From Octopus vulgaris (Eukaryota), in contig OX597827.1 of NCBI GenBank assembly GCA_951406725.2, forward strand, positions 3,906,001-3,970,000: DNA of 64,000 bases. Reading direction: 5' to 3'. Below the pieces are notes generated by a model. That model did not search any database. It saw only the letters and a list, made by a program, of their open reading frames with translations, and had not been told where the DNA came from. Position numbers and translations under genes: made by a program. Below are positions 12,360 to 64,000 of this stretch, one piece after another (position 1 is the stretch's first letter; each line of letters opens with the position of its first letter).

Positions 12360-13069
12360 TATGATAAAGTTATTCCTACCTTGACCATCTCATTTATTTT
12401 TAAGAACATATCCAGGGCCACATTATTCAATGTGTCCATTTTGATCTCAAGACCGCAAATAGGATGTAATTTGAGAGAGCTTTAGCTGCTTTTCTTGCAG
12501 GTCAAGCAACAATTGTAAAAGTTCTCCATTTAAAATCGCTGTTGCTTTTGTTCCTGTTTAATCTCAGGTCAGTTCCTTTGGGAAAGTTCATCTTACAAGG
12601 GAATTTAGGTACCATGAAGTTTTCTTTGTGTCTTTTCATTTTTTTTCAAAATTTGGAAACAAGACTTTTTAAGGGGCCCATGTAAACAAAACTTTGCTTT
12701 CAAAGAAATTATCTGAAGTTTTAGACAAAGAATAACAATTTTTAAAAAAGCAAATAAGACAATTAAACAATGCAGTTGGTCAAAGAATTCCCTAGGGAAT
12801 TAATAGAAAGCAAAATGCATGGACCCCTACCCCTACCCGGAATTCTTCACTGTACTTGTTGCCAACCCTCACCTTACTGACAGTATACCTGTACATGGCT
12901 TGTACAGCTCTCACTAACCACTCATCTATCCCTAGTTCCAGCATTGACCACCAGATAAATATTACAGAACCTGAGAAGATCAGTGCTGTAATTTATCCAC
13001 AGTGCTTTAAAAATGGTATCTAAAAGATAATTTATTTTAATAGCATACTTCTGATAGTGACTTAGCTAT

Positions 13070-13432
13070 TAGAGCAAGGTCATCAGCATAGAGAAGCTCC
13101 CAGGGGCATCTTGTCTTGAATTTCTCTGTTATTGCCTGGTGGACAACTATCCCTAGTCTCTGCATTGACCACCAGATAAGGGATCGGGGGACCCTGTCAA
13201 AGGCTTTCTCCTTGTCAATGAAAGCCGGGTACAGAGGTTTATCTTTGGCTTGGTATTTCTCCTACAGCTGTCTTACCAGAAAAATAGCATCAGTGGTGCT
13301 TTTCCCTAGCACAAACCCAAACTGCATCTCGTCTAAACTGACTTTCTCCCTAATTAGTCGGGCTATGACCCTTTCTGTGACTTTCATTACCTGATCCAAC
13401 AACTTGATACCTCTATAATTATTTGTATCTAA
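13070..13432 (-). mobile_element. RTE LINE reverse-transcriptase fragment, internally deleted
   Basis: NYRGIKLLDQVMKVTERVI..QFGFVLGKSTTDAIFLVRQL..FIDKEKAFDRVPR joined to WELLYADDL. Confidence 0.9.
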
Positions 13433-16057
13433 TCTAATGCATTTTTTAAAAGACAGTAAAAAATCTGAAAGTCGGCTATAAGGATGTAGTCTTCCAGTCT
13501 CATTGCTTTGAAGGTATGTTGTGGAAAAAAAAAAATTGGAGAAAAATGTTACAAAGGTTTAAAAATCGGAAAAACTGTATATTTTTCACCAATAGTGAGA
13601 CAGAAATTTTCTGCGTTTATTAAGCAGTGTCAACTTTTAGGTTGTACCCTGTGAAATTTAGAGTTTAGCATCTGAGAAATCTTATTGTTTCTTTTGTCTC
13701 TTCATTGATTGTATGGTTTTATTATTTTAAAAATTTGTTATATTAATATATATTAGTTTGCATGTGTTTACTTTATGCATATTTCTGTATTATGTATACC
13801 TGTCATGTATTTGTGTACATCATCAATATATAAGTGCATGTGGATGTATGTATTCATATATAGGTTTATATGTACATTTATGCATTCGTGTGTGTGTGTG
13901 TGTATGTATGTGTTTGAGTGTGTGTGAAGGGGGCATCTGTCTTCAAAACTCCAAAGTCGAGTAACATTTTCACGCTTGGATTTGTAAACTACAATAAGAA
14001 TAACACTGGTCAACAAAGAATTTGTCCCAAGGAAAAGAATACCTGTATCTTATATATTTTTGCATGCAGACTTCAAAAGTAATGTCAAATTATCTGTGTC
14101 ACCCACAGTTTCTCTGTTCCAGGATATCTCTCTCAGTTCCTGTTACGTGGGCTAAATTTCAGTTAAGCTGTTGAAATGTGAATCTAACGGTTTAAGAAAT
14201 ACTCCTAATTAAAATTTTTATGAACAGAATTAACCTAGTGAAATCCTAAATCTAGCAATCTGAGTCAATGCATCCACAAAATATGTGAAATGAAAAATAT
14301 GTAAAAATACTAACACACAGAAGCACAGAAAAATGCTGACACAGAGAAGCACAGAAAAATATGTAATATACTAACACACAGAGAAATCAAAACAAAACAC
14401 GTGGGTGAAAAGAATCTCGTGGTGTGAAGAATTGAGTGTGAAAAATCAATGTAGACAACAGTGGCAGAGACAACAGTGAACCACAACACAGCGTTTAGTT
14501 GTCATGGTAACAAACTGCTAATGCCAAGCTGTCTGTTGATTGGCTAAAATCACCCAAATTTCCCAACTTTAATGCCAAATAACATCAGATTCTTTAATTT
14601 ACGAGTTAAACTAATTGGTTGATCGTAATCGAAATTCAGAGTTGCATCAATACACCAAAATTGAAAGCAATCTGAGCAAAATTAAGGGGGTGGGGCTCAT
14701 TGTGTGAATGAGAAAGACTAGATCCCCAATATTGTCCAGGAGGATGGGGCTGAGGTGAAAAACAGTCATAAATTTTCAAAACAAATTTTTATAAAATATC
14801 CCCTACCACCATCACGACCAATACATCACCTCAAAAGCCTGAGTAAAAAATAAAATTGGAAAAATCCCTGTCAAAATGGAGAAAATTAAACTTATGTGGG
14901 CATCCTGATCCAAAACTCCACCTCAATAATTTCATCTCCTTAACAGCATGAGACATAAATATATTGATTTTCATTTTTGACCTACAAATTCAGACAACAA
15001 AAGTATATAGAGCAGAAATAATGCAGACACAAAAGGGTTAAATATTTAGTTTTAAGCCATTTCTTGCAGAAGAAAAAATCTAAGGAGATAATGTTCCAAA
15101 TTTTGTTTTTTATCTCCTACATAAAAAATGATAATATAAGGTTGTGAGGGTGGATAATACTATTTATCTGGTTTAAAATTATTTCAACCCTTACAGGTGT
15201 TCCCCCTTAGTCTCATGGCAACCAATATTTTTAGACCCATTCTGCCACTGCTCACAAGGCTTTGGTTGGCCCAGAATTATTGTATAAGACACTTACTCAA
15301 GGTACCACACAATGGGACTGAACATGAAATTAGATGTGCAGTTTAGTCTAGAGTAAATCTACAGCACCTTTTGCCATTTTCGGATTGATGCCACAATATG
15401 GCATCCTTCTTATGACAGATCGATCACAAACAGAAACACATCAAGTAATAGACACTGTTAGTTCCAACTCATATTTCATTTTCTGCTAGCAGAAAATTAG
15501 ATATTGATATGATATGTCAGTGCTCATATCACCAACAGTTCTCTTGTAAATGCTGCCAGCAAGAGAAGAACATTGTGTGAGTGACAAATTTTGTTTTGTA
15601 TCACTGTAGCTGAAGTTTATTGTCATCTGGGAAAGACCACAGAAAGACCATGAATGAAATTTGCTTCCTGAACTTTTCACAGAGTTTCTACTGTTAGAAT
15701 TTGGTGTCTTTTGTGTAAGCACTATTTAGTTGTGTTTGAATCACCCTCCCGCCAGGCATTCAGCTGACATTGACAATGGGCTATGGTGAAGAGGGAAAAG
15801 AAATTTTTAGAAACATCACATGCAAAACAGTTCTACCACCAGGATAAACAAAACTGCTGAAGGAATTGTTGCAGAAAATCTCTCATGGCTTAGACCTTCG
15901 GCTGCATTCCTCAGATTAGGATGTTTAGTCCATCAGCTTTTGTTCCACTTCAACAAAATATATTTTGAAATCTGAGAAAGCCACAAGCTTTTTATTGTTG
16001 TTGTGGTTGTTACCACCACCACCACCACCACTTCCTCCACCACCACCACCACCACCA

Positions 16058-19671: not shown

Positions 19672-19804
19672 TGCTATTTGATGCTTGTGCAGTTTTCTAT
19701 GCAGCCACCAAAACTAATTTGTTGATGTTGTTGTTTTTATTGTTACTTAGTCCAAGTTTTCCCTACTTAGTGGGCTTAATATTCCAATTGCTGTACTCTG
19801 TTTT

Positions 19805-20060
19805 TACTCTTGTACTTGTTTCAGTCATTTGACAATGGCCATGCTGGAGCACCGCCTTTAGTCGAGCAAATCGACCCCACAACTTATTCTTTGTAAGCCT
19901 AGTACTTATTCTATCAGTCTCTTTTGCCGAACCGCTAAGTTACAGGGACGTAAACACACTGGCATCGGTTGTCAAGCGATGTTGGGGGGTCAAATAGAAA
20001 CACACAACCACAGATGTTGGGGGGGGGGGGGACAAACACAGACACACAAACACACGTGCA
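19805..20060 (-). mobile_element. 3' half of abundant tRNA SINE
   Basis: Reverse complement of 21020-21226. Confidence 0.85.
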
Positions 20061-20251
20061 TATATATATACATATACATTGTTGTTGTTGTTATTGTTGT
20101 TGTTGTTTAGTTCCTTTACAATGAAATGAGTTGATGAATAAGTGAGATTTCCTATAAGTTTGTTCATGTAGTAACTCTTACTGTATCTATCCATCTATCT
20201 ATCCATCTATCAGTCACTTAATCAGTTGTATATGCCTGAGGTGTGTGTGTG

Positions 20252-20291
<40 letters not shown>

Positions 20292-20305
20292 TAGATAGAT
20301 GCAGA

Positions 20306-20344
<39 letters not shown>

Positions 20345-20810
20345 TGATAAGGTGCTAAAATATTTTATACCTTGTATCTATAACAGAAGTATCTTTTGCT
20401 TTCCATCAAAAGCATTTGTCCATCGTTTATTTAATAACAGGACCAAATGCTTCCACTAGAAGAAGTTCAAGAGGATTGTAAAAAAGCAGACAAATTCTTA
20501 TATTTACTTCAATTAAGATTGTTCAAATGTTCAAAACTTTTAAAAATTGTCCAATGCTCTGGTGAAGAAAGAAGAATTACCATATCTACTCATGTATAAG
20601 TTGCATTATTTTATTCTTGATTTTAACTGGAAAAACTGGGGTGCAACTTATACACAGAGCAAAGCTTATATCAACTTTGGATAGGAAGGGAGAATTTCTG
20701 TACCAAGATTTAACACAAAATTAGGGGTGTAACTTATACATGAGTGCAACTAATGCATGAGGAAATACAGGAGACACATGGGACAGAAAGTCACTGGAAA
20801 GGTTACAATA

Positions 20811-21226
20811 TAGGCGCAGGAGTGGCTGTGTGGTAAGTAGCTTGTTTACCAACCACATGGTCCCGGGTTCAGCCCCACTGCGTGGCACCTTGGGCAAGTG
20901 TCTTCTATTATAGCCTCGGGCCGACCAAAGCCTTGTGAGTGGATTTGGTAGACGGAAACTGAAAAGAAGCCCGTCGTATATATGTATATATATATATATA
21001 TGCGTGTGTGCGTGTTTGTTTGTGTGTCTGTGTTTGTCCCCCTAGCATTGCTTGACAACTGATGCTGGTGTGTTTATGTCTCCGTTACTTAGCGGTTCGG
21101 CAAAAGAGACCGATAGAATAAGCACTGGGCTTACCGGGGTCGAGTTGCTCGATTAAAGGCAGTGCTCCAGCATGGTCGCAGTCAGATGACTGAAACATGT
21201 AAAAGAGTAAAAGAGTAAAAAGAGTA
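20811..21226 (+). mobile_element. Full-length tRNA-derived SINE with internal (TA)n(TG)n and (GTAAAAGA)n tail
   Basis: A box TGGCTGTGTGG, B box GGTTCAGCCCC, GGCACCTTGGGCAAGTG core; near-identical copy at 45817-46240. Confidence 0.9.
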
Positions 21227-25166: not shown

Positions 25167-25638
25167 AACAGACAGACAGACAGAGACGGCATTAGCAATA
25201 TAAATTTTAATTTTGCTGAATTGTATATCAGATACAAGAGAAAGGTGATAATGTTTGAACATATTGTGTGTTCATATGTTTTTTTTTTCATCTGAAAACA
25301 CAACAGTGTTCAATCTTTTGACCTGTACTGAATTACAACTTTTATACAAAATATCAAATGAATTTATGCCCAGCACAAGTGCAAGCTGTATTTGAGAATT
25401 GACGATGATGATGATGATGATGGTAACAGTGATGATGATGATGTTGATGATGTTGAATTGTTATACAAACAGGAAACCACTGGTGGGTCAAAGAGTATTG
25501 ATTAGTGTGATTGTAATATTATACTTATACTTATTTGTATATATATAGCTGTAGTTTGTGTATACACATATGTGTGCATATGTATATAAATATATGAATG
25601 TGTGTGTGTATGTCTTTTATATATATATATATATATAT

Positions 25639-27115
25639 TGATAAAACGGTAAGATAACAAAAGAAAGAAAGAGACCTCAATATTATGTAAATAGAGGAAA
25701 TTTATCTATACAATATGTTACATTACTCGGTAGTCAAGATAAAACTCTGAGTTTCAGATGCCGAAGTGGAAATCCACAACACCATCTCTTCGGTTATCTG
25801 GCTATTTGAAAACGTTATGAAAAAATACCGTTAAAAATGAAGGGAAATTACTCTGTTATAACTCTGCTTTGCCTGCGTACTTATACATCGCTCGCATTTT
25901 TCGTCATAAAAATTATATAAAAATACATAAAAAATATATAAAAATATATAAAAATATATAAAATCTTCTTGGGACATAACACAGAAAGCATGTTCTATCC
26001 GTTTTCTTTAGGGGACCAAAAACGTAACAGAAATTTAGTCACATGTGGGCATGATCCGAAAAGTTCTGTCCTTGTATTTAGACATGTGGTAGGGTCTAAG
26101 CTGCTTTTCCAGATAAGCCATCTCTCCATGTCGCATAAACCGCACCTTCCGCTGCCGTTAGTATAGGGCTTACATCTGGCCAAAATCTTCCATTGTATGT
26201 TATAATCGACACCTTTATCTCTTAAAGACCAAATATGATTGGATAATTGTGTCGCTTTTCTTTGTTCCAGTGCCTAAAGCTCAAAGTGTGGTTATTGAAC
26301 CTGGTCTTGAAATTACCTCTGTCAGGCCCACGTATTTCTTCGTCAAAACGGTGTCTTTAGTGGTTATAGAGTTTACGGTAGCCTCATATATGATGGTCTT
26401 GGACATGCAAGCTCCATTTAGCGGGCACAATTCTTTATTCCTGCATGAACAGCTGTTTTCTTCTTGTGTTTTTTGTATGTTATGATTGATTATGTTTTTA
26501 AAATTGGTAGTTGAACTAAAACTAATTTTTAAATTGTGTCTATTGAAGAGTTTCCTATAAGCATGGTTAACTGGAAAATGTCTATCTATCAGTGCTAGGA
26601 AATATTTACCTATATTGAAGGCCACCTCGGGTGAGTAAGGGGGCGTAAACCAGATGACCTTCCTATTTCTATTATTCCTTTTCCTTATTGTTGGGCTGGT
26701 GATAGGTGTATATTTTATTTTTTCGCTAAAACCACTATCTTTTAAAGCTTTATTATAAACTGGGGCAACGCTATTGAAGATGTCCTCATTAGATGAGAGG
26801 CTAGAAATCCTCTTACTAATATTTTTAACTAAATTTTTGAATACTATAGGGGATGGCATGAACCTACATTAATATAACTTAGTCTATCATTGGGCTTCCT
26901 ATAAGGCTTATAAATATTATTATTAAGATCTAAGGAAACGTCTAAGAAATTGACAACCGTCAGGTTAGTGTCTATAGTTATACTAAGTCCGAAGTGTTTC
27001 ATTAACTGGATAATATCCTTCCTAAAACGATCTTGTGCTGGTCCATTTGTATTAGCTGTTAAGGCGAGGGCATCATCTTTGTAGATGGCGAAATGTACGT
27101 TAGGGAATGTCTTAC
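25639..27115 (-). mobile_element. Penelope-like retroelement, left arm (5'-truncated RT, GIY-YIG endonuclease, 3' end)
   Basis: YKDD, NFLDV, YRKP, SCHP, IWFTPPY, CSC..CPL..C linker, IIY..YVG..R..H, C-terminal CxLC..E..LN; ORFs 26844-27125, 26281-26859, 25995-26183. Confidence 0.95.
25731..25804 (-). ncRNA. Type I hammerhead ribozyme motif in PLE 3' end (left arm)
   Basis: Reverse complement of 28434-28507. Confidence 0.65.
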
Positions 27116-27116
27116 A

Positions 27117-28535
27117 GTAAGACATTCCCTAACGTACATTTTCGCCATCTACAAAGATGATGCCCTCGCCTTAACAGCTAATACAAATGGACCAGCACAA
27201 GATCGTTTTAGGAAGGATATTATCCAGTTAATGAAACACTTCGGACTTAGTATAACTATAGACACTAACCTGACGGTTGTCAATTTCTTAGACGTTTCCT
27301 TAGATCTTAATAATAATATTTATAAGCCTTATAGGAAGCCCAATGATAGACTAAGTTATATTAATGTAGGTTCATGCCATCCCCCTATAGTATTCAAAAA
27401 TTTAGTTAAAAATATTAGTAAGAGGATTTCTAGCCTCTCATCTAATGAGGACATCTTCAATAGCGTTGCCCCAGTTTATAATAAAGCTTTAAAAGATAGT
27501 GGTTTTAGCGAAAAATAAAATATACACCTATCACCAGCCCAACAATAAGGAAAAGGAATAATAGAAATAGGAAGGTCATCTGGTTTACGCCCCTTACTCA
27601 CCCGAGGTGGCCTTCAATATAGGTAAATATTTCCTAGCACTGATAGATAGACATTTTCCAGTTAACCATGCTTATAGGAAACTCTTCAATAGACACAATT
27701 TAAAAATTAGTTTTAGTTCAACTACCAATTTTAAAAACATAATCAATCATAACATACAAAAAACACAAGAAGAAAACAGCTGTTCATGCAGGAATAAAGA
27801 ATTGTGCCCGCTAAATGGAGCTTGCATGTCCAAGACCATCATATATGAGGCTACCGTAAACTCTATAACCACTAAAGACACCGTTTTGACGAAGAAATAC
27901 GTGGGCCTGACAGAGGGTAATTTCAAGACCAGGTTCAATAACCACACTTTGAGCTTTAGGCACTGGAACAAAAGAAAAGCGACACAATTATCCAATCATA
28001 TTTGGTCTTTAAGAGATAAAGGTGTCGATTATAACATACAATGGAAGATTTTGGCCAGATGTAAGCCCTATACTAACGGCAGCGGAAGGTGCGGTTTATG
28101 CGACATGGAGAGATGGCTTATCTGGAAAAGCAGCTTAGACCCTACCACATGTCTAAATACAAGGACAGAACTTTTCGGATCATGCCCACATGTGACTAAA
28201 TTTCTGTTACGTTTTTGGTCCCCTAAAGAAAACGGATAGAACATGCTTTCTGTGTTATGTCCCAAGAAGATTTTATATATTTTTATATATTTTTATATAT
28301 TTTTTTTTTATGTATTTTTATATAATTTTTATGACGAAAAATGCGAGCGATGTATAAGTACGCAGGCAAAGCAGAGTTATAACAGAGTAATTTCCCTTCA
28401 TTTTTAACGGTATTTTTTCATAACGTTTTCAAATAGCCAGATAACCGAAGAGATGGTGTTGTGGATTTCCACTTCGGCATCTGAAACTCAGAGTTTTATC
28501 TTGACTACCGAGTAATGTAACATATTGTATAGATA
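27117..28535 (+). mobile_element. Penelope-like retroelement, right arm (inverted copy of 25703-27115)
   Basis: ORFs 27093-27518 and 27607-28239 encode the same protein; centre GAATGTCTTAC-A-GTAAGACATTC at 27116. Confidence 0.95.
28434..28507 (+). ncRNA. Type I hammerhead ribozyme motif in PLE 3' end (right arm), U4C core variant
   Basis: AGATAA-CCGAAGA-GATG..GTGG ATTT CCAC..CATC-T-GAAA-CTC A GAG-TT-TTATCT: stem I in exact register, near-palindromic stem III, GUU triplet. Confidence 0.65.
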
Positions 28536-39377: not shown

Positions 39378-39454
39378 AATATTTTCTTGGTGAAATTGTA
39401 ATAAATAAATATGCACTTTGAGTAATTATACATTGTAATGTCATTGTTTTTTGG

Positions 39455-39551
39455 CATCTTGGGCAAGTGTCTTCTGCTATAGCCCCGGGCCGACCAATGC
39501 CTTGTGAGTGGATTTGGTTGACGGAAACTGAAAGAAGCCTGTCGTATATAT

Positions 39552-39589
<38 letters not shown>

Positions 39590-39808
39590 TTGTGTGTCTG
39601 TGTTTGTCCCCCTAGCATTGCTTGACAACCGATGCTGGTGTGTTTACGTCCCTGTCACTTAGCGGTTCGGCAAAAAGAAACCGATAGAATAAGTACTGGG
39701 CTTACAAAGAATAAGTCCTGGGGTCGATTTGCTTGACTAAAGGCGGTGCTCCAGCATGGCTGCAGTCAAATGACTGAAACAAGTAAAAGAGAGTAAGAGT
39801 AAAAGAGT
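39455..39808 (+). mobile_element. 5'-truncated abundant tRNA SINE
   Basis: Matches 20885-21226. Confidence 0.9.
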
Positions 39809-40207
39809 ATAAAAACACATTAACCACAAACGCACATAAACACACACACATATGTAAATACATATATGTATATATTTGTGAGTGTGTGTGTGTGTGTGTG
39901 TTCAAATAAATATATGATTGTAAAAGTATATATGTATGTGTGTTTGTATATGTATTTATGATTGCATGTATGTACATATTTCTTCATGTTTTTTTTTTAT
40001 ATTGACACAGCTTGGAATTGGTGAGGTTTGCTTCTGTCTCCCATAAACCTGCAATGACATTTGGAATAAAGTCCCTGACTCAAAATAAGGGCTTATTGAC
40101 CCTTGGAAGTGTGCCCGAGTGTAGAAAGGCACATTAAGGAGTATTGTCCAAACTATGCAAGCATGGAAAATGTTGAATGTATAAAATGATGACAATGAGG
40201 ACAATAA

Positions 40208-42734: not shown

Positions 42735-43448
42735 CCAGGCCATGTCTAACTTAATAGTACCACCTGATAAGATTATCTAAATCCTTTTTAAGTCAAGTTT
42801 TGTTTATGGTCCATTTAAGTAGTGAGTTGTATCCAGTTATGGGTGGCTTATCTGGTATTCCTTGAAGAAAACTGTCCAGACTTCGTTTAAAGGTGATGGG
42901 ATCCTTTTCCTCTTTGATCAGTTTTGGGACAATGTTAAACAGGGCAGGGCCTATTGAGGAAAAGAAATTATGTTGCAGTGTACCTATATGTTGTGATCCT
43001 GAATTGGGCATGGGACGTATGGCCCATGGTCCCAACCTTGGATGAACCTTGAAACTAATGTTCAGGTCGTTTGGGCAAAGTTGGTGGTATATTCTCCACA
43101 TCGTATCAATTAAAGTACCTCTCGTGGTGGCGCTGGAGGGAGTAGAGTTTCAAGGCTTTAAGGCAGTCTCAGTAATCGAGATCAGTCATGCCTTCAATTC
43201 GTTTAGTGAGTGCCCTCTGGGGTGATTCAGTTCTCGAGATGTTTTGTATTGTATGGAGAGACCACAAGGGGCAGCAGTATTCGAGGTGAGGCTGAACAAA
43301 GGAGGAGAAAAGTGGAATGATGACACCAAGTTCTCTGGACCGGAAGGTTCTTAAGATCCAGGAGCTCATCCTACAAGCTATATTGACCTTATTGTTGATA
43401 TGGGCATTCCAACTGAGATTGTTATCAACAATTACACCCAGGTCTCTG
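42735..43448 (-). mobile_element. Decayed CR1/L2-clade LINE 3' fragment
   Basis: RDLGVI, SWILRTFRSR..FVQPHLEYCCPLWS, GPALFNIVP..FKRSLDSFL..IPDKP. Confidence 0.9.
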
Positions 43449-43490
<42 letters not shown>

Positions 43491-44181
43491 CATATATATA
43501 TATATGTATATATATATATACATACACGTTTATATACATGTGTGTGTTTGTATATATATATAGATAGATTTATTCATGTATAATATGAGAGTGTGTATGT
43601 GTAAGAACTCAGGGAGACAGTAAAAGAGAAGATATATTTAGATTGAACATTAGAAAAACAATATAGCAAAATATATAAAGAAAATACACAATTCAGAGAA
43701 ATAAATAAATGTTACTGAAATTTTCCATTCTTTCTACCCAAGAAATAACTGAATGGAAAGAAAATTTCAAGAAATTATCTTTGTAAACAAAATGGCTTTT
43801 CATCTGTGAGATGCATTAGTATTGTCCATCATATAAGATCATTTATGACTAAGTTGATTCCTCAAAGAATTGTGAAACATTTGTCTGTACGTCACAATAA
43901 ACTAATAGATTTTGTATTGACTCAATCTTACTTGCAGAGAATATTAGCCAAAGGCAAGGAATATTTATTTTGAATAAAAGTTGGCACTTGTGACAAATGG
44001 ACACAATTATTTGTTTATTTTTATTTATTCTCTTTTTTTTGTTGTATACTTGTTTTTGTTAGAGTGAGTTAGATAAACACACACACACACACACACATAC
44101 ATATATATATGTATATGTATATCTATTTATCTATCTACCTACCTACCTACCTACATACATATATATATATATACATATATA

Positions 44182-45018: not shown

Positions 45019-45081
45019 CATTATATATATACTCACACACACACATATACATACAAATATATATACATATATATATATATG

Positions 45082-45800
45082 TAGGCACAGGAGTGGCTGT
45101 GTGGTAAGAGGCTTGTTCCCAACCACATAGTTCCAGGTTCGGTCCCACTGCATTGCACCTTTGTGTTCTCTATAGCCTCAGGTCGACCAAATCCTTGTGA
45201 ATGGATTTGGTAGACAGAAACGGAAAGAATCTTGTTATATATGTGTGTGTATGTGTATGTGTGTGTGTATTTGTGTGTCTGTGTTTGTCCCCACACCATT
45301 GCTTGACAACTGATGTTGGTATGTTTACATCCCCATAATTGAGAAATATGGCAAAAGAGACAGATAGAATAAGTACTAGGCTTACATGGAAGTGTAATGG
45401 CCCAGTGGTTAGAGAAGCGGGCTTGCGGTCATGGGGTCGCGGTTTCAATTCCCAGACCAGTTGTTGTGAGTGCTTATTGAGCGAAACCCCTAAAACTCCA
45501 CGAGGCTCCAACAGGAGGTAGTGATGAACCCTGCTGTACTCTTTCACCACAACTTTCTCGCACTCTTTCTTCCTGTTTCTGTTGTACCTGTATTTCAATG
45601 GGTACATTTATATGTGGAGTGCTCAGCCACTTACACGTTAATTTTATAAGCAGGCTGTTCCATTGATTGAATCAACTGGAACTGGACATGGAATGCCACT
45701 CGGCTTACTAAGAATGTCCTGCGGTCAATTTGTTTCACTAAAGGCGGTGTTCCAGCATGGCCGCAGTCAAATGACGGAAAATCAAGTAAGAGAATAAAAG
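45082..45800 (+). mobile_element. Abundant tRNA SINE containing a second tRNA SINE (45388-45705)
   Basis: Host is interrupted at GGCTTAC, which is repeated on both sides; inner head TGGCCCAGTGG..GGTTTCAATTCC resembles 60904-61192. Confidence 0.8.
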
Positions 45801-45816
45801 AATATATATATATATA

Positions 45817-46240
45817 TAGGCGCAGGAGTGGCTGTGTGGTAAGTAGCTTGCTAACTAGCCACATGGTTCCGGGTTCAGTCCCACTGCATGGCACCTTGGG
45901 CAAGTGTCTCCTGCTATAGCCTCGGGCCGACCAAAGCCTTGTGAGTGGATTTGGTAGACAGAAACTGAAAGAAGCCCGTCGTATATATGTACTTATATAT
46001 ATATGTATGTGTGTGTATATGTTTGTGTGTCTGTGTTTGTCCCCTTAGCATTGCTTGACAACCAATGCTGGTGTGTTTACGTCCCCGTCACTTAGCGGTT
46101 CGGCAAAAGAGACCGATAGAATGAGTACTGGGCTTACAAAAGAATAAGTCCCGGGGTCGAGTTGCTCGATTAAAGGCGGTGCTCCAGCATGGTCGCAGTG
46201 AAATGACTGAAACAAGTAAAAGAGGAAAAGAGGAAAGAGG
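45817..46240 (+). mobile_element. Full-length abundant tRNA SINE
   Basis: Near-identical to 20811-21226. Confidence 0.9.
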
Positions 46241-57711: not shown

Positions 57712-58356
57712 GCACATGTGTCAGCACGAATGACTGTCTAAATGTTTGCATGTAAAGAGTATGTGTCAGTGTGTCTGTGCGTCTCTATGTCTGTGTGTAC
57801 GTTGGTTGGATGAGATGATGCCAAAGGGATTAAAAGTAATAATGAGATATTCTAGGACTGATTGAATGTGTATAGACCGTTTATCCATAGGACTCTGGTA
57901 TATTTACGTCTGTGTATATTTATGTAAGTGCATAACATTCAGTACATATGTGTGCTTGTGAATTTCTGTATTGATTTGCATTTCACATACGTGCAAACAT
58001 AAATGCGAACAATAACATGCACACACACACACACACACACGGCTATCTATAGAGCCAATGTGGGACCCTCTGAGGGATAAACATTCATACAAGAAATAGC
58101 AACCAATTTTATCTCAAATTGCATCTTATTTTCTTAAACAAAAGATTGTCACATTAGATGATGTGGTCCTACCTATCCCAAGAAGAACAGGATGGTCATG
58201 GCTGGAATGTCGATTAGAGATGACATGGTATACAATAACAACAACAACTGTAACAGCACATGTACATTTTATACCTAACACATCATGTAAATATGGAATT
58301 AAGTTGATTAAAGTACATTTATATGTATATGCATATATATATATATATATATATAT

Positions 58357-58803
58357 AGGAGTGGTTGTGTGGTAAGAAGCTTGCTTCCCAACCACATGAT
58401 TCCAGGTTCAGTCCCACTGTGTGGCACCTTGGGCAAGTGTTTTCTATTACAGCCTCAGGTCAACCAAAGCCTTGCGAATGGATTTGGTAGACGGAAACAG
58501 AAAGAAGCCCATCGTACATATATATATATGTATGTATTTTTGTGTCTGTGTTTGTCCACCCACTATCTCTTGACAACTGTTGTTAGTGTATTTACATCCC
58601 CGTAACTTAGCAGTTCAGCACAAGAGACTGGCAGAATAAGTACTATGCTTACAATGAATAAGTCCTGGGGTTGGTTTGTTTGACTAAAGGTGGTGCTCCT
58701 GCATGCCCACAGTCAAATGACTGAAACAAGTAAAAGAATATTATGTATGTATGTATATATCTGTGTGTGTGTGTATGTGTGTGTGTATATGTGTGTATGT
58801 GTG

Positions 58804-63334: not shown

Positions 63335-63377
<43 letters not shown>

Positions 63378-63389
63378 GTTGTATTCTTT

Positions 63390-63614
63390 TATTCTTTAAC
63401 TTGTTTCAGTCATTTGACTGTGGCCATGCTGGAACACCACCTTAAAGGGTTTTAGTTGAAGAAACCGATCTCCAGACATATTCTTTGTAAGCCTAGTACT
63501 TAATCTAGCTATGAGTCTCTTTTGCTGAACTGCTAAATTATGGGGACATAAACCCACCAGCATCGGATTTACCAAGTGATGGTGGGAGGACAAACACAGA
63601 CACACATACACACA

Positions 63615-63659
<45 letters not shown>

Positions 63660-63805
63660 GATGGGCTTCTTTCAGTTTCCGTCTACCAATCCACTTACAA
63701 GGCTTTGGTCAGTCCGAGGCTATAGTAGGAGATACTTGCCCAAGGTACCACACAGTGGGACTGAACCTGGAACTATACAGCTGAGAAGAAAGCTTCTTAC
63801 CACAC
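63390..63805 (-). mobile_element. Abundant tRNA SINE
   Basis: Reverse complement of 20811-21226 family. Confidence 0.85.
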
Positions 63806-64000
63806 ATGTAAGTGTGCATAGTTTCACAATATTTTCTATGTTAAACATTCTTCTTCTTTCCAGTCTTCTCTCTATGTATATCCAAAGATGCAATGTTATT
63901 CTTGGATTTTTCAGGATACACGGTAACCCTATTTGTTGAACGACTGAATTCACGGAGGCTGCTCTGTTTAGTCGTAGCATTTAATAAGATAGTTCATCTG

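Follow-up and report, generated by a model that had tools for sequence, protein, structure and literature searches.

A nearly spacerless palindrome of a very young Hydra-clade Penelope-like element in Octopus vulgaris, probably built from two cDNAs of one template

Introduction

Long palindromes with almost no spacer raise the question of how two mirror-image copies of a sequence came to meet head to head. One such structure lies in a 64,000-nucleotide stretch of Octopus vulgaris DNA (the window), where a sequence-only reading had found a near-perfect palindrome of a Penelope-like element (PLE), explained it as a simple fold-back insertion and treated it as a potential source of hairpin RNA. 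Inverted, 5'-truncated PLE copies, palindromes at their junctions and a one-sided tail have already been published (PMC3846280, PMC8557442), Penelope-13_HM being listed with an inverted 5'-truncated copy in PMC8557442. Among the open points of PLE biology the same paper lists how tandem and inverted structures arise, as well as the bias towards microsatellites. The locus is considered here together with the family of copies to which it belongs.

Structure of the palindrome

Gapped alignment of the two sides gives a palindrome of about 2.8 kb centred on A27116, as read from the sequence alone. The features of the locus, in window coordinates, are as follows.

25618-25635, no strand: left (TA)n target tract, read from the sequence
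25636-25702, minus strand: 67-nt PLE tail (T end), marking the downstream end site; matches the tandem junctions of loci L045 and L039
25703-27115, minus strand: left arm, a 5'-truncated Hydra PLE copy covering unit positions 1175-2590; 99.7% match to the natural L045 unit
25737-25799, minus strand: predicted type I hammerhead ribozyme motif of the left arm, mirror of the right-arm motif
27115-27117, no strand: head-to-head junction C-A-G, from the native L045 context and an exact junction walk
27117-28535, plus strand: right arm, a 5'-truncated, tail-less Hydra PLE copy (N end) covering unit positions 1173/1175-2590; 99.3% match to the L045 unit
27150-27161, plus strand: YKDD catalytic motif of the reverse transcriptase (RT), residues 346-349 of the intact 708-aa ORF
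27781-27807, plus strand: CxCX5C linker motif, which section 11 of PMC8557442 gives as diagnostic for the Hydra clade; residues 557-565, tblastn frame
27838-27906, plus strand: GIY-YIG core without internal cysteines (no CCHH); residues 576-598, tblastn frame
28439-28501, plus strand: predicted type I hammerhead of Hydra-type layout with a predicted cut after 28495, compared by eye with File S2 of PMC8557442
28536-28558, no strand: right (TA)n target tract, read from the sequence

Between the two arms there is no substitution; all differences are indels, six of 1 bp and one of 4 bp within an AT-rich run, and 25 perfect pairs extend outward from A27116 before the first indel. Both arms begin about 11 codons ahead of YKDD, which is found at 27150 on the plus strand and at 27072 on the minus strand, and extend outward across the GIY-YIG region as far as the 3' end of the element, in agreement with the earlier description. 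That description also holds for the surroundings: (TA)n adjoins both ends of the palindrome and the outer flanks are unlike, each tested flank having a single full-length match in the assembly. Two details needed correction. The left arm is indeed the longer one on its outer side, but by 67 nt (25636-25702, the final ATA blending into (TA)n) and not by about 64; and the central A, though present, is no spacer, the native element context being C-A-G in L045, with A27116 belonging to the right-arm element sequence and C27115 forming a 1-nt overlap common to both arms.

Elsewhere in the window, decayed remnants of LINE-type reverse transcriptases lie on the minus strand at 1411-2927, about 13040-13558 and about 42800-43570, with RVT_1 above the cut-off only at 1411-2927. 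A SINE-like repeat of 350-430 bp is present in several copies of 75-90% identity in both orientations (19800-21220, 39450-39810, 45050-46240, 58310-58790 and 63340-63810).

Is the mirror image real? It could have arisen during assembly, from a chimeric long read of the fold-back type or from misjoining at a repeat, and the arms do differ by indels alone, seven in about 2.9 kb, which is above most of the sibling loci listed. None of the independent runs and contigs searched spans the palindrome junction, no strand-changing joint was seen in four runs, and the best run among those listed holds 0.82 of the sampled words around the palindrome centre. The right-arm indels at 27139, 27510 and 27589 are likely consensus errors, since they are missing from the independent runs that cover them (4/4, 4/4 and 3/3). 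The lack of a contig with the junction is expected for a young insertion, which other individuals need not carry and which contigs, dropping rare variants, may lose. A chimeric read would moreover have mirrored the tail and the flank, whereas the tail here is one-sided and the flanks are unlike and single-copy; asymmetric pairs elsewhere in the family show the same one-tail layout, and the arms of older near-symmetric pairs differ by substitutions. An artefact is very improbable, and the palindrome is present in the assembly as described.

Identity of the element

The right arm has many matches of 99-100% across the genome, and exact matches number 1,783 for a 33-nt motif of the 3' end and 726 for an internal 31-nt motif. 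Tandem arrays yield a unit of 2,590 bp with an intact ORF of 708 amino acids, of which seven were found in six fetched loci. As a Hydra-clade PLE requires, the unit is shorter than 3 kb and has a single ORF with RT followed by a C-terminal GIY-YIG endonuclease (EN). RWK is present at residue 37 (92 of 120 homologues), DKT replaces DKG (SDKT at residue 113; 110 of 120 homologues; the sole DKG sits in EN), and the CxCX5C linker at residues 557-565 is found in 119 of 120 homologues. The GIY-YIG core contains no cysteine, so that CCHH is absent, and EN has CxxC at 660 and CxH after N682, around a conserved E and N. Because RWK, DKT, CxCX5C, a CCHH-free GIY-YIG and CxxC/CxH form the Hydra diagnostic set in section 11 of PMC8557442, the element is placed by these motifs in the Hydra clade. 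The (TA)n target, seen at both ends here and at nearly all resolved family ends among those listed, agrees with that clade as presented in the same paper; the predicted 3' hammerhead resembles the Hydra layout by eye but has C at core position 4. The earlier calls of a Penelope-like element, an inverted insertion and a (TA)n target are thus upheld, while the proposed choice among Poseidon, Neptune and Nematis did not include the clade to which the motifs point.

Other clades were considered and rejected. Both the CX2-5CxxC linker and the CCHH of EN expected for Neptune/Nematis were not found in the ORF; Penelope/Poseidon has CCHH in EN and no Zn-finger-like linker, whereas here CCHH is absent and the linker present; in Naiad/Chlamys EN is N-terminal to RT and not, as here, C-terminal. 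A Pfam search of the intact 708-aa ORF returned no family, which is read as a gap in the library and not as counter-evidence.

Compared by eye with Hydra-1_Obim in PMC8557442 (Craig et al. 2021), the N-terminal stretch of about 400 residues matches closely, whereas the hammerhead differs, with C at core position 4 here. By its hammerhead the element would represent a family distinct from Hydra-1_Obim. Words of the element also occur in runs under six organism labels at the same share of 0.82; these could be related species, host-associated samples or cases of transfer.

Tail and hammerhead motif

The 67 nt that extend the left arm match exactly the opening 67 nt of the following unit in tandem arrays and occur on one end only, which identifies them, from the array sequences, as the known PLE tail. 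PMC8557442 describes the tail as often at one end only, and in vitro it has been mapped between two RT start sites of a Poseidon PLE (PMC11167929). Its length here differs from the 30-40 nt given for EN+ PLEs in PMC8557442 and PMC3846280. Both end sites, untailed and tailed, finish in ATA, which could pair with a (TA)n primer.

The predicted hammerhead lies 40 nt before the 3' end and has the Hydra layout, with a palindromic stem III and an extra U before GAA. C occupies core position 4 in all 253 segments that cover it. An Rfam search gave no hammerhead match, taken as a library gap and not as counter-evidence, and folding of the motif as a monomer recovers stem II only. Pairs of hammerheads on opposite strands are noted in PMC4209133.

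Cleavage by the hammerhead was tried as the chief cause of truncation and rejected: only 3 of 112 5' ends fall near the predicted cut, against 27 just upstream of the motif. These 27 ends (C1 sample) are concentrated in 36 nt, at unit positions 2465-2500 (window about 28410-28445), and give many palindromes of 200-300 bp; this hot spot probably marks a site where transcription starts or RT stops. Over 28413-28530, contigs of independent runs pile up over the hammerhead to a depth of 1,000-2,400, their loose ends carrying the canonical CTGAAGA core. Short hammerhead repeats akin to the element 3' end, and far more numerous than it, account for this pile-up.

Inverted copies across the family

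The frequency of inverted copies was estimated from the first 100 motif matches on contig C1, taken in order of position, which correspond to 68 loci. An inversion junction is present in 44 of these, and three are near-symmetric with arms longer than 1 kb. Scaled by 1,783/100, and thus extrapolated from one chromosome arm, the genome would hold roughly 1,200 loci, 780 of them inverted, and some 50 near-symmetric palindromes of kilobase size. The rarity implied by the sequence-only reading does not fit a sample in which about two thirds of the loci are inverted; the locus itself is ordinary debris, one unremarkable example of a known architecture within a Hydra family that is new and active. 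Long arms with an offset of 3 nt or less were also found at L034, L141, L146 and L152. L033 and L119 were dropped for overlap with L032 and L118. A recurrent breakpoint was suggested by L034, whose centre is 6 nt off, and was rejected: L034 came from a query favouring copies of this kind and has a different haplotype, so that chance suffices.

Junctions were classified by the ends of their arms. Among 119, a tailed arm is joined to an untailed one in 96, two tails occur in one, two untailed arms in none, and 22 could not be assigned; the one-tailed pairing thus holds for 96 of 97 resolved junctions, and for all 39 resolved among the 44 of the C1 sample. L077 appeared two-tailed under a loose merge and resolves to an untailed/tailed pair beside a separate segment. 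The only two-tail palindrome, L035 (G000:C3:136358500-136368499), continues its mirror for about 4 kb on each side into host DNA at 97-99% and ends near the locus edges. It is an event of a different kind, and may be a PLE inversion that seeded a larger palindrome or an assembly mirror.

The arms of a pair have the same source, because they agree at the common family SNPs: 164 of 164 in one count, where 61 discordances were expected, and 313 of 319 over 69 pairs. Of the six discordances, the aberrant L049 accounts for two, a single site next to an A run for three and L131 for one. L049, with 38 arm differences, was excluded from the per-kb rates and the spectrum counts.

The truncation points of the two arms are coupled, 8 of 45 long pairs falling within 25 nt of each other where 1.7 were expected (p 5e-5). 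The 49 junctions without inserts have a mean micro-homology of 2.0 nt, compared with 0.74 by chance. Inserts were found at 40 of 89 base-resolved junctions, some of which may reflect nearby SNPs. At L071 and L099 the inserts, of 25-26 nt, resemble by eye copies of element sequence close by, of the kind made in polymerase-theta-type end joining.

L118 and L119 (G000:C1:57208400-57223000) form an array of 13.7 kb in which an inversion is flanked on either side by several tandem units; the array contains intact ORFs, and its units differ in SNP haplotype. This array is a candidate source locus.

Origin of the inverted pairs

The palindrome consists of two 5'-truncated copies of a very young Hydra-clade PLE, set head to head in (TA)n, and probably arose in one insertion event, from two cDNAs primed separately on one template. 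The endonuclease would cut both strands of the (TA)n tract, and each free target end would pair with ATA in the RNA and prime reverse transcription, one at the untailed site and the other 67 nt downstream. Both cDNAs would then run toward the RNA 5' end or a break. If both ended at one point (here within 2 nt) and end joining linked their 3' ends via micro-homology (here 1 nt), a nearly spacerless palindrome would result. In the present case C would be the last base of the tailed cDNA and G that of the untailed one, and pairing of the two would give the observed junction with no untemplated base.

In the competing proposal of self-priming, published for inverted PLE junctions in PMC3846280, a single cDNA (or RNA) folds over at the point of truncation and serves as its own template for the second arm. 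It would explain the excess of near-symmetric pairs, the SNPs common to both arms and the private substitutions common to both arms at L063 and L117, and a CTG loop would likewise account for the present junction without untemplated bases. The tail speaks against it: a tail-less cDNA cannot template a tail, so the tailed arm must be the longer. The tailed arm reaches further 5' in 30 asymmetric pairs and the untailed arm in the other 22 of 52; among 30 near-symmetric pairs the figures are 12 and 16, with two ties, and at this locus the tail-less arm extends 2 nt further 5'. With either arm longer about equally often in the family, the fold-back insertion proposed earlier is unlikely. Two cDNAs are preferred because of the one-tail pairing, the freedom of either arm to be longer, the shared SNPs and the near-symmetric excess, taken together. 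The argument rests on the family, the 2-nt offset of this locus by itself being weak evidence.

How far the template was shared is a finer point. Arms of the same source also follow if a single source locus dominates in each germ cell, and both one RNA molecule and two RNAs from that locus fit; the six SNP discordances and the haplotype-mixing array L118 count against one template.

A third explanation holds that the insertion was asymmetric at first, or came from two RNAs, and was evened later by host repair through central deletion or arm-to-arm conversion. In its favour, near-symmetric pairs of two older subfamilies have few arm differences: in one, a single difference in 5,092 bp, compared with 3.25 per kb; in the other, the oldest, L063 (G000:C1:22211796-22216428), with a 20-nt offset, has seven shared private changes and two arm differences in 1,424 bp, compared with 7.8 per kb in its siblings; and the palindrome of L035 reaches kilobases into host DNA. 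The present locus, however, belongs to the youngest subfamily, whose asymmetric pairs are also nearly identical (0.76 differences per kb), and in the best-sampled older subfamily, 2130C, the rate is 2.81 per kb for five pairs with an offset of at most 25 nt and 2.82 for 22 asymmetric pairs. Deletion, moreover, tends to add a spacer rather than to remove one, which counts against later symmetrisation. As the origin of this palindrome it is quite improbable.

Two separately primed cDNAs are compatible with what is known of a Poseidon PLE in vitro, where both strands are cut and extended, two RNA start sites bracket the tail and a dimer is predicted (PMC11167929). The start sites do not differ between the strands in that work, which counts against this reading, the one-tail rule finding no biochemical explanation there. 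A more specific scheme may be put forward, which we hold with some reserve, at somewhat less than an even chance. A dimeric Hydra PLE enzyme would make two copies of one RNA molecule, starting at two fixed sites separated by 67 nt, one for each end of a (TA)n double-strand cut, and run-off at the shared RNA end would routinely write nearly spacerless kilobase palindromes into the germ line, of which the genome would carry some tens, tolerated across subfamily ages. If true, this reading would answer, against self-priming, how PLE inverted repeats form, and an intact active enzyme is at hand for testing it.

Age and persistence

Private changes amount to 0.40 per kb in the youngest subfamily and to 1.8, 2.5 and 8.3 in the older ones. 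The locus studied here belongs to the youngest and has no private substitution in 1,396 and 1,337 aligned bases of its arms. The insertion is very recent, as had been claimed, because private changes are lacking and the subfamily is the youngest, and not because of the argument from the spacer.

In model organisms, long palindromes without a spacer count as fragile (PMC7999016), and instability had been invoked for this one. In 2130C the near-spacerless pairs carry as many arm differences as the asymmetric ones; they persist in that older subfamily, are not homogenised as a rule, and rapid loss is not evident. The near-symmetric pairs (offset up to 60) of the three older groups number 7/29, 4/16 and 1/8, figures compatible both with a purging of palindromes and with its absence. 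General gene conversion between arms was suggested by the first sample, with 4 differences in 12.6 kb of near-symmetric and 53 in 23.3 kb of asymmetric pairs, and was rejected as a rule by the equal rates in 2130C. The remaining two older groups have near-symmetric arms that resemble each other more than expected, L063 being the clearest case, and arm-to-arm conversion may act at L063 and L117. In this family, kilobase palindromes nearly devoid of spacer can be followed through a natural series of ages.

Coding capacity and hairpin RNA

Each arm lacks the N-terminal 333 residues and the element 5' end; the palindrome cannot encode an active protein and most likely has no function. A Pfam search of 140 of the 459 ORFs of the window found only LINE-type RT remnants above the cut-off and no host gene or protein family, and the locus might still lie within a long intron of a host gene.

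A role as hairpin RNA, silencing its own family or edited by ADAR, had been suggested. Read-through would indeed be predicted to give a perfect duplex of about 1.4 kb, rotifer PLEs yield mainly antisense small RNAs (PMC3846280), and the element was found in contigs of runs guessed to be RNA. The arms are, however, without the element 5' end, no host protein family appeared in the ORFs scanned, and hundreds of similar palindromes did not stop successive subfamilies from spreading. An ADAR signature was looked for in 271 copied segments and not found, A>G singletons standing at 3.5 and T>C at 4.65 per 10,000 with at most four A>G per segment, in a comparison that covers only RNAs that were retrotransposed. 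The proposed ADAR or Dicer role thus receives no encouragement, and the chance that the palindrome acts as a hairpin source appears very slight.

Comparison with known systems

A literature search over titles and the beginnings of abstracts, with subscription papers mostly outside its scope, found no statement of a one-tail rule or of a twin-cDNA model for PLEs. Recently active Penelope-like families have been counted in an octopus (PMC13282606), with no detail of clade or structure in the text available, and inversions are not treated in the accessible part of a 2026 retrozyme preprint. The inverted truncated copy at the 5' end, the head-to-head palindrome and the tail at one end resemble the inverted pLTR and tail of EN+ PLEs (PMC3846280; legend of Fig. 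2 in PMC8557442). The tail, called optional or often one-sided in these papers, is here confined to one end as a near-strict, counted rule, and the palindromes attributed to self-priming in the 2013 paper (PMC3846280) are here better explained, on the counts, by two cDNAs. The PAc Poseidon element studied in vitro by Frangieh et al. 2024 (PMC11167929) belongs to another clade, and the sections available from that study do not address the completion of inverted insertions; it shares with the present family two RT starts that bracket the tail downstream of the hammerhead, cutting and extension of both strands and an AT-rich target.

This Hydra family is very young, comprises on the order of a thousand loci and has both intact ORFs and SNPs that mark its subfamilies; it supplies countable constraints that set twin cDNA synthesis apart from fold-back, namely one tail per insertion, a shared template and coupled truncation. 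The nearest parallel outside the PLEs is the twin priming of L1, in which both target ends prime on one RNA and the products are joined via micro-homology. There the second primer is internal and the result is an inversion of non-overlapping parts, whereas in the present case the 3' end is contained in both arms and a palindrome results.
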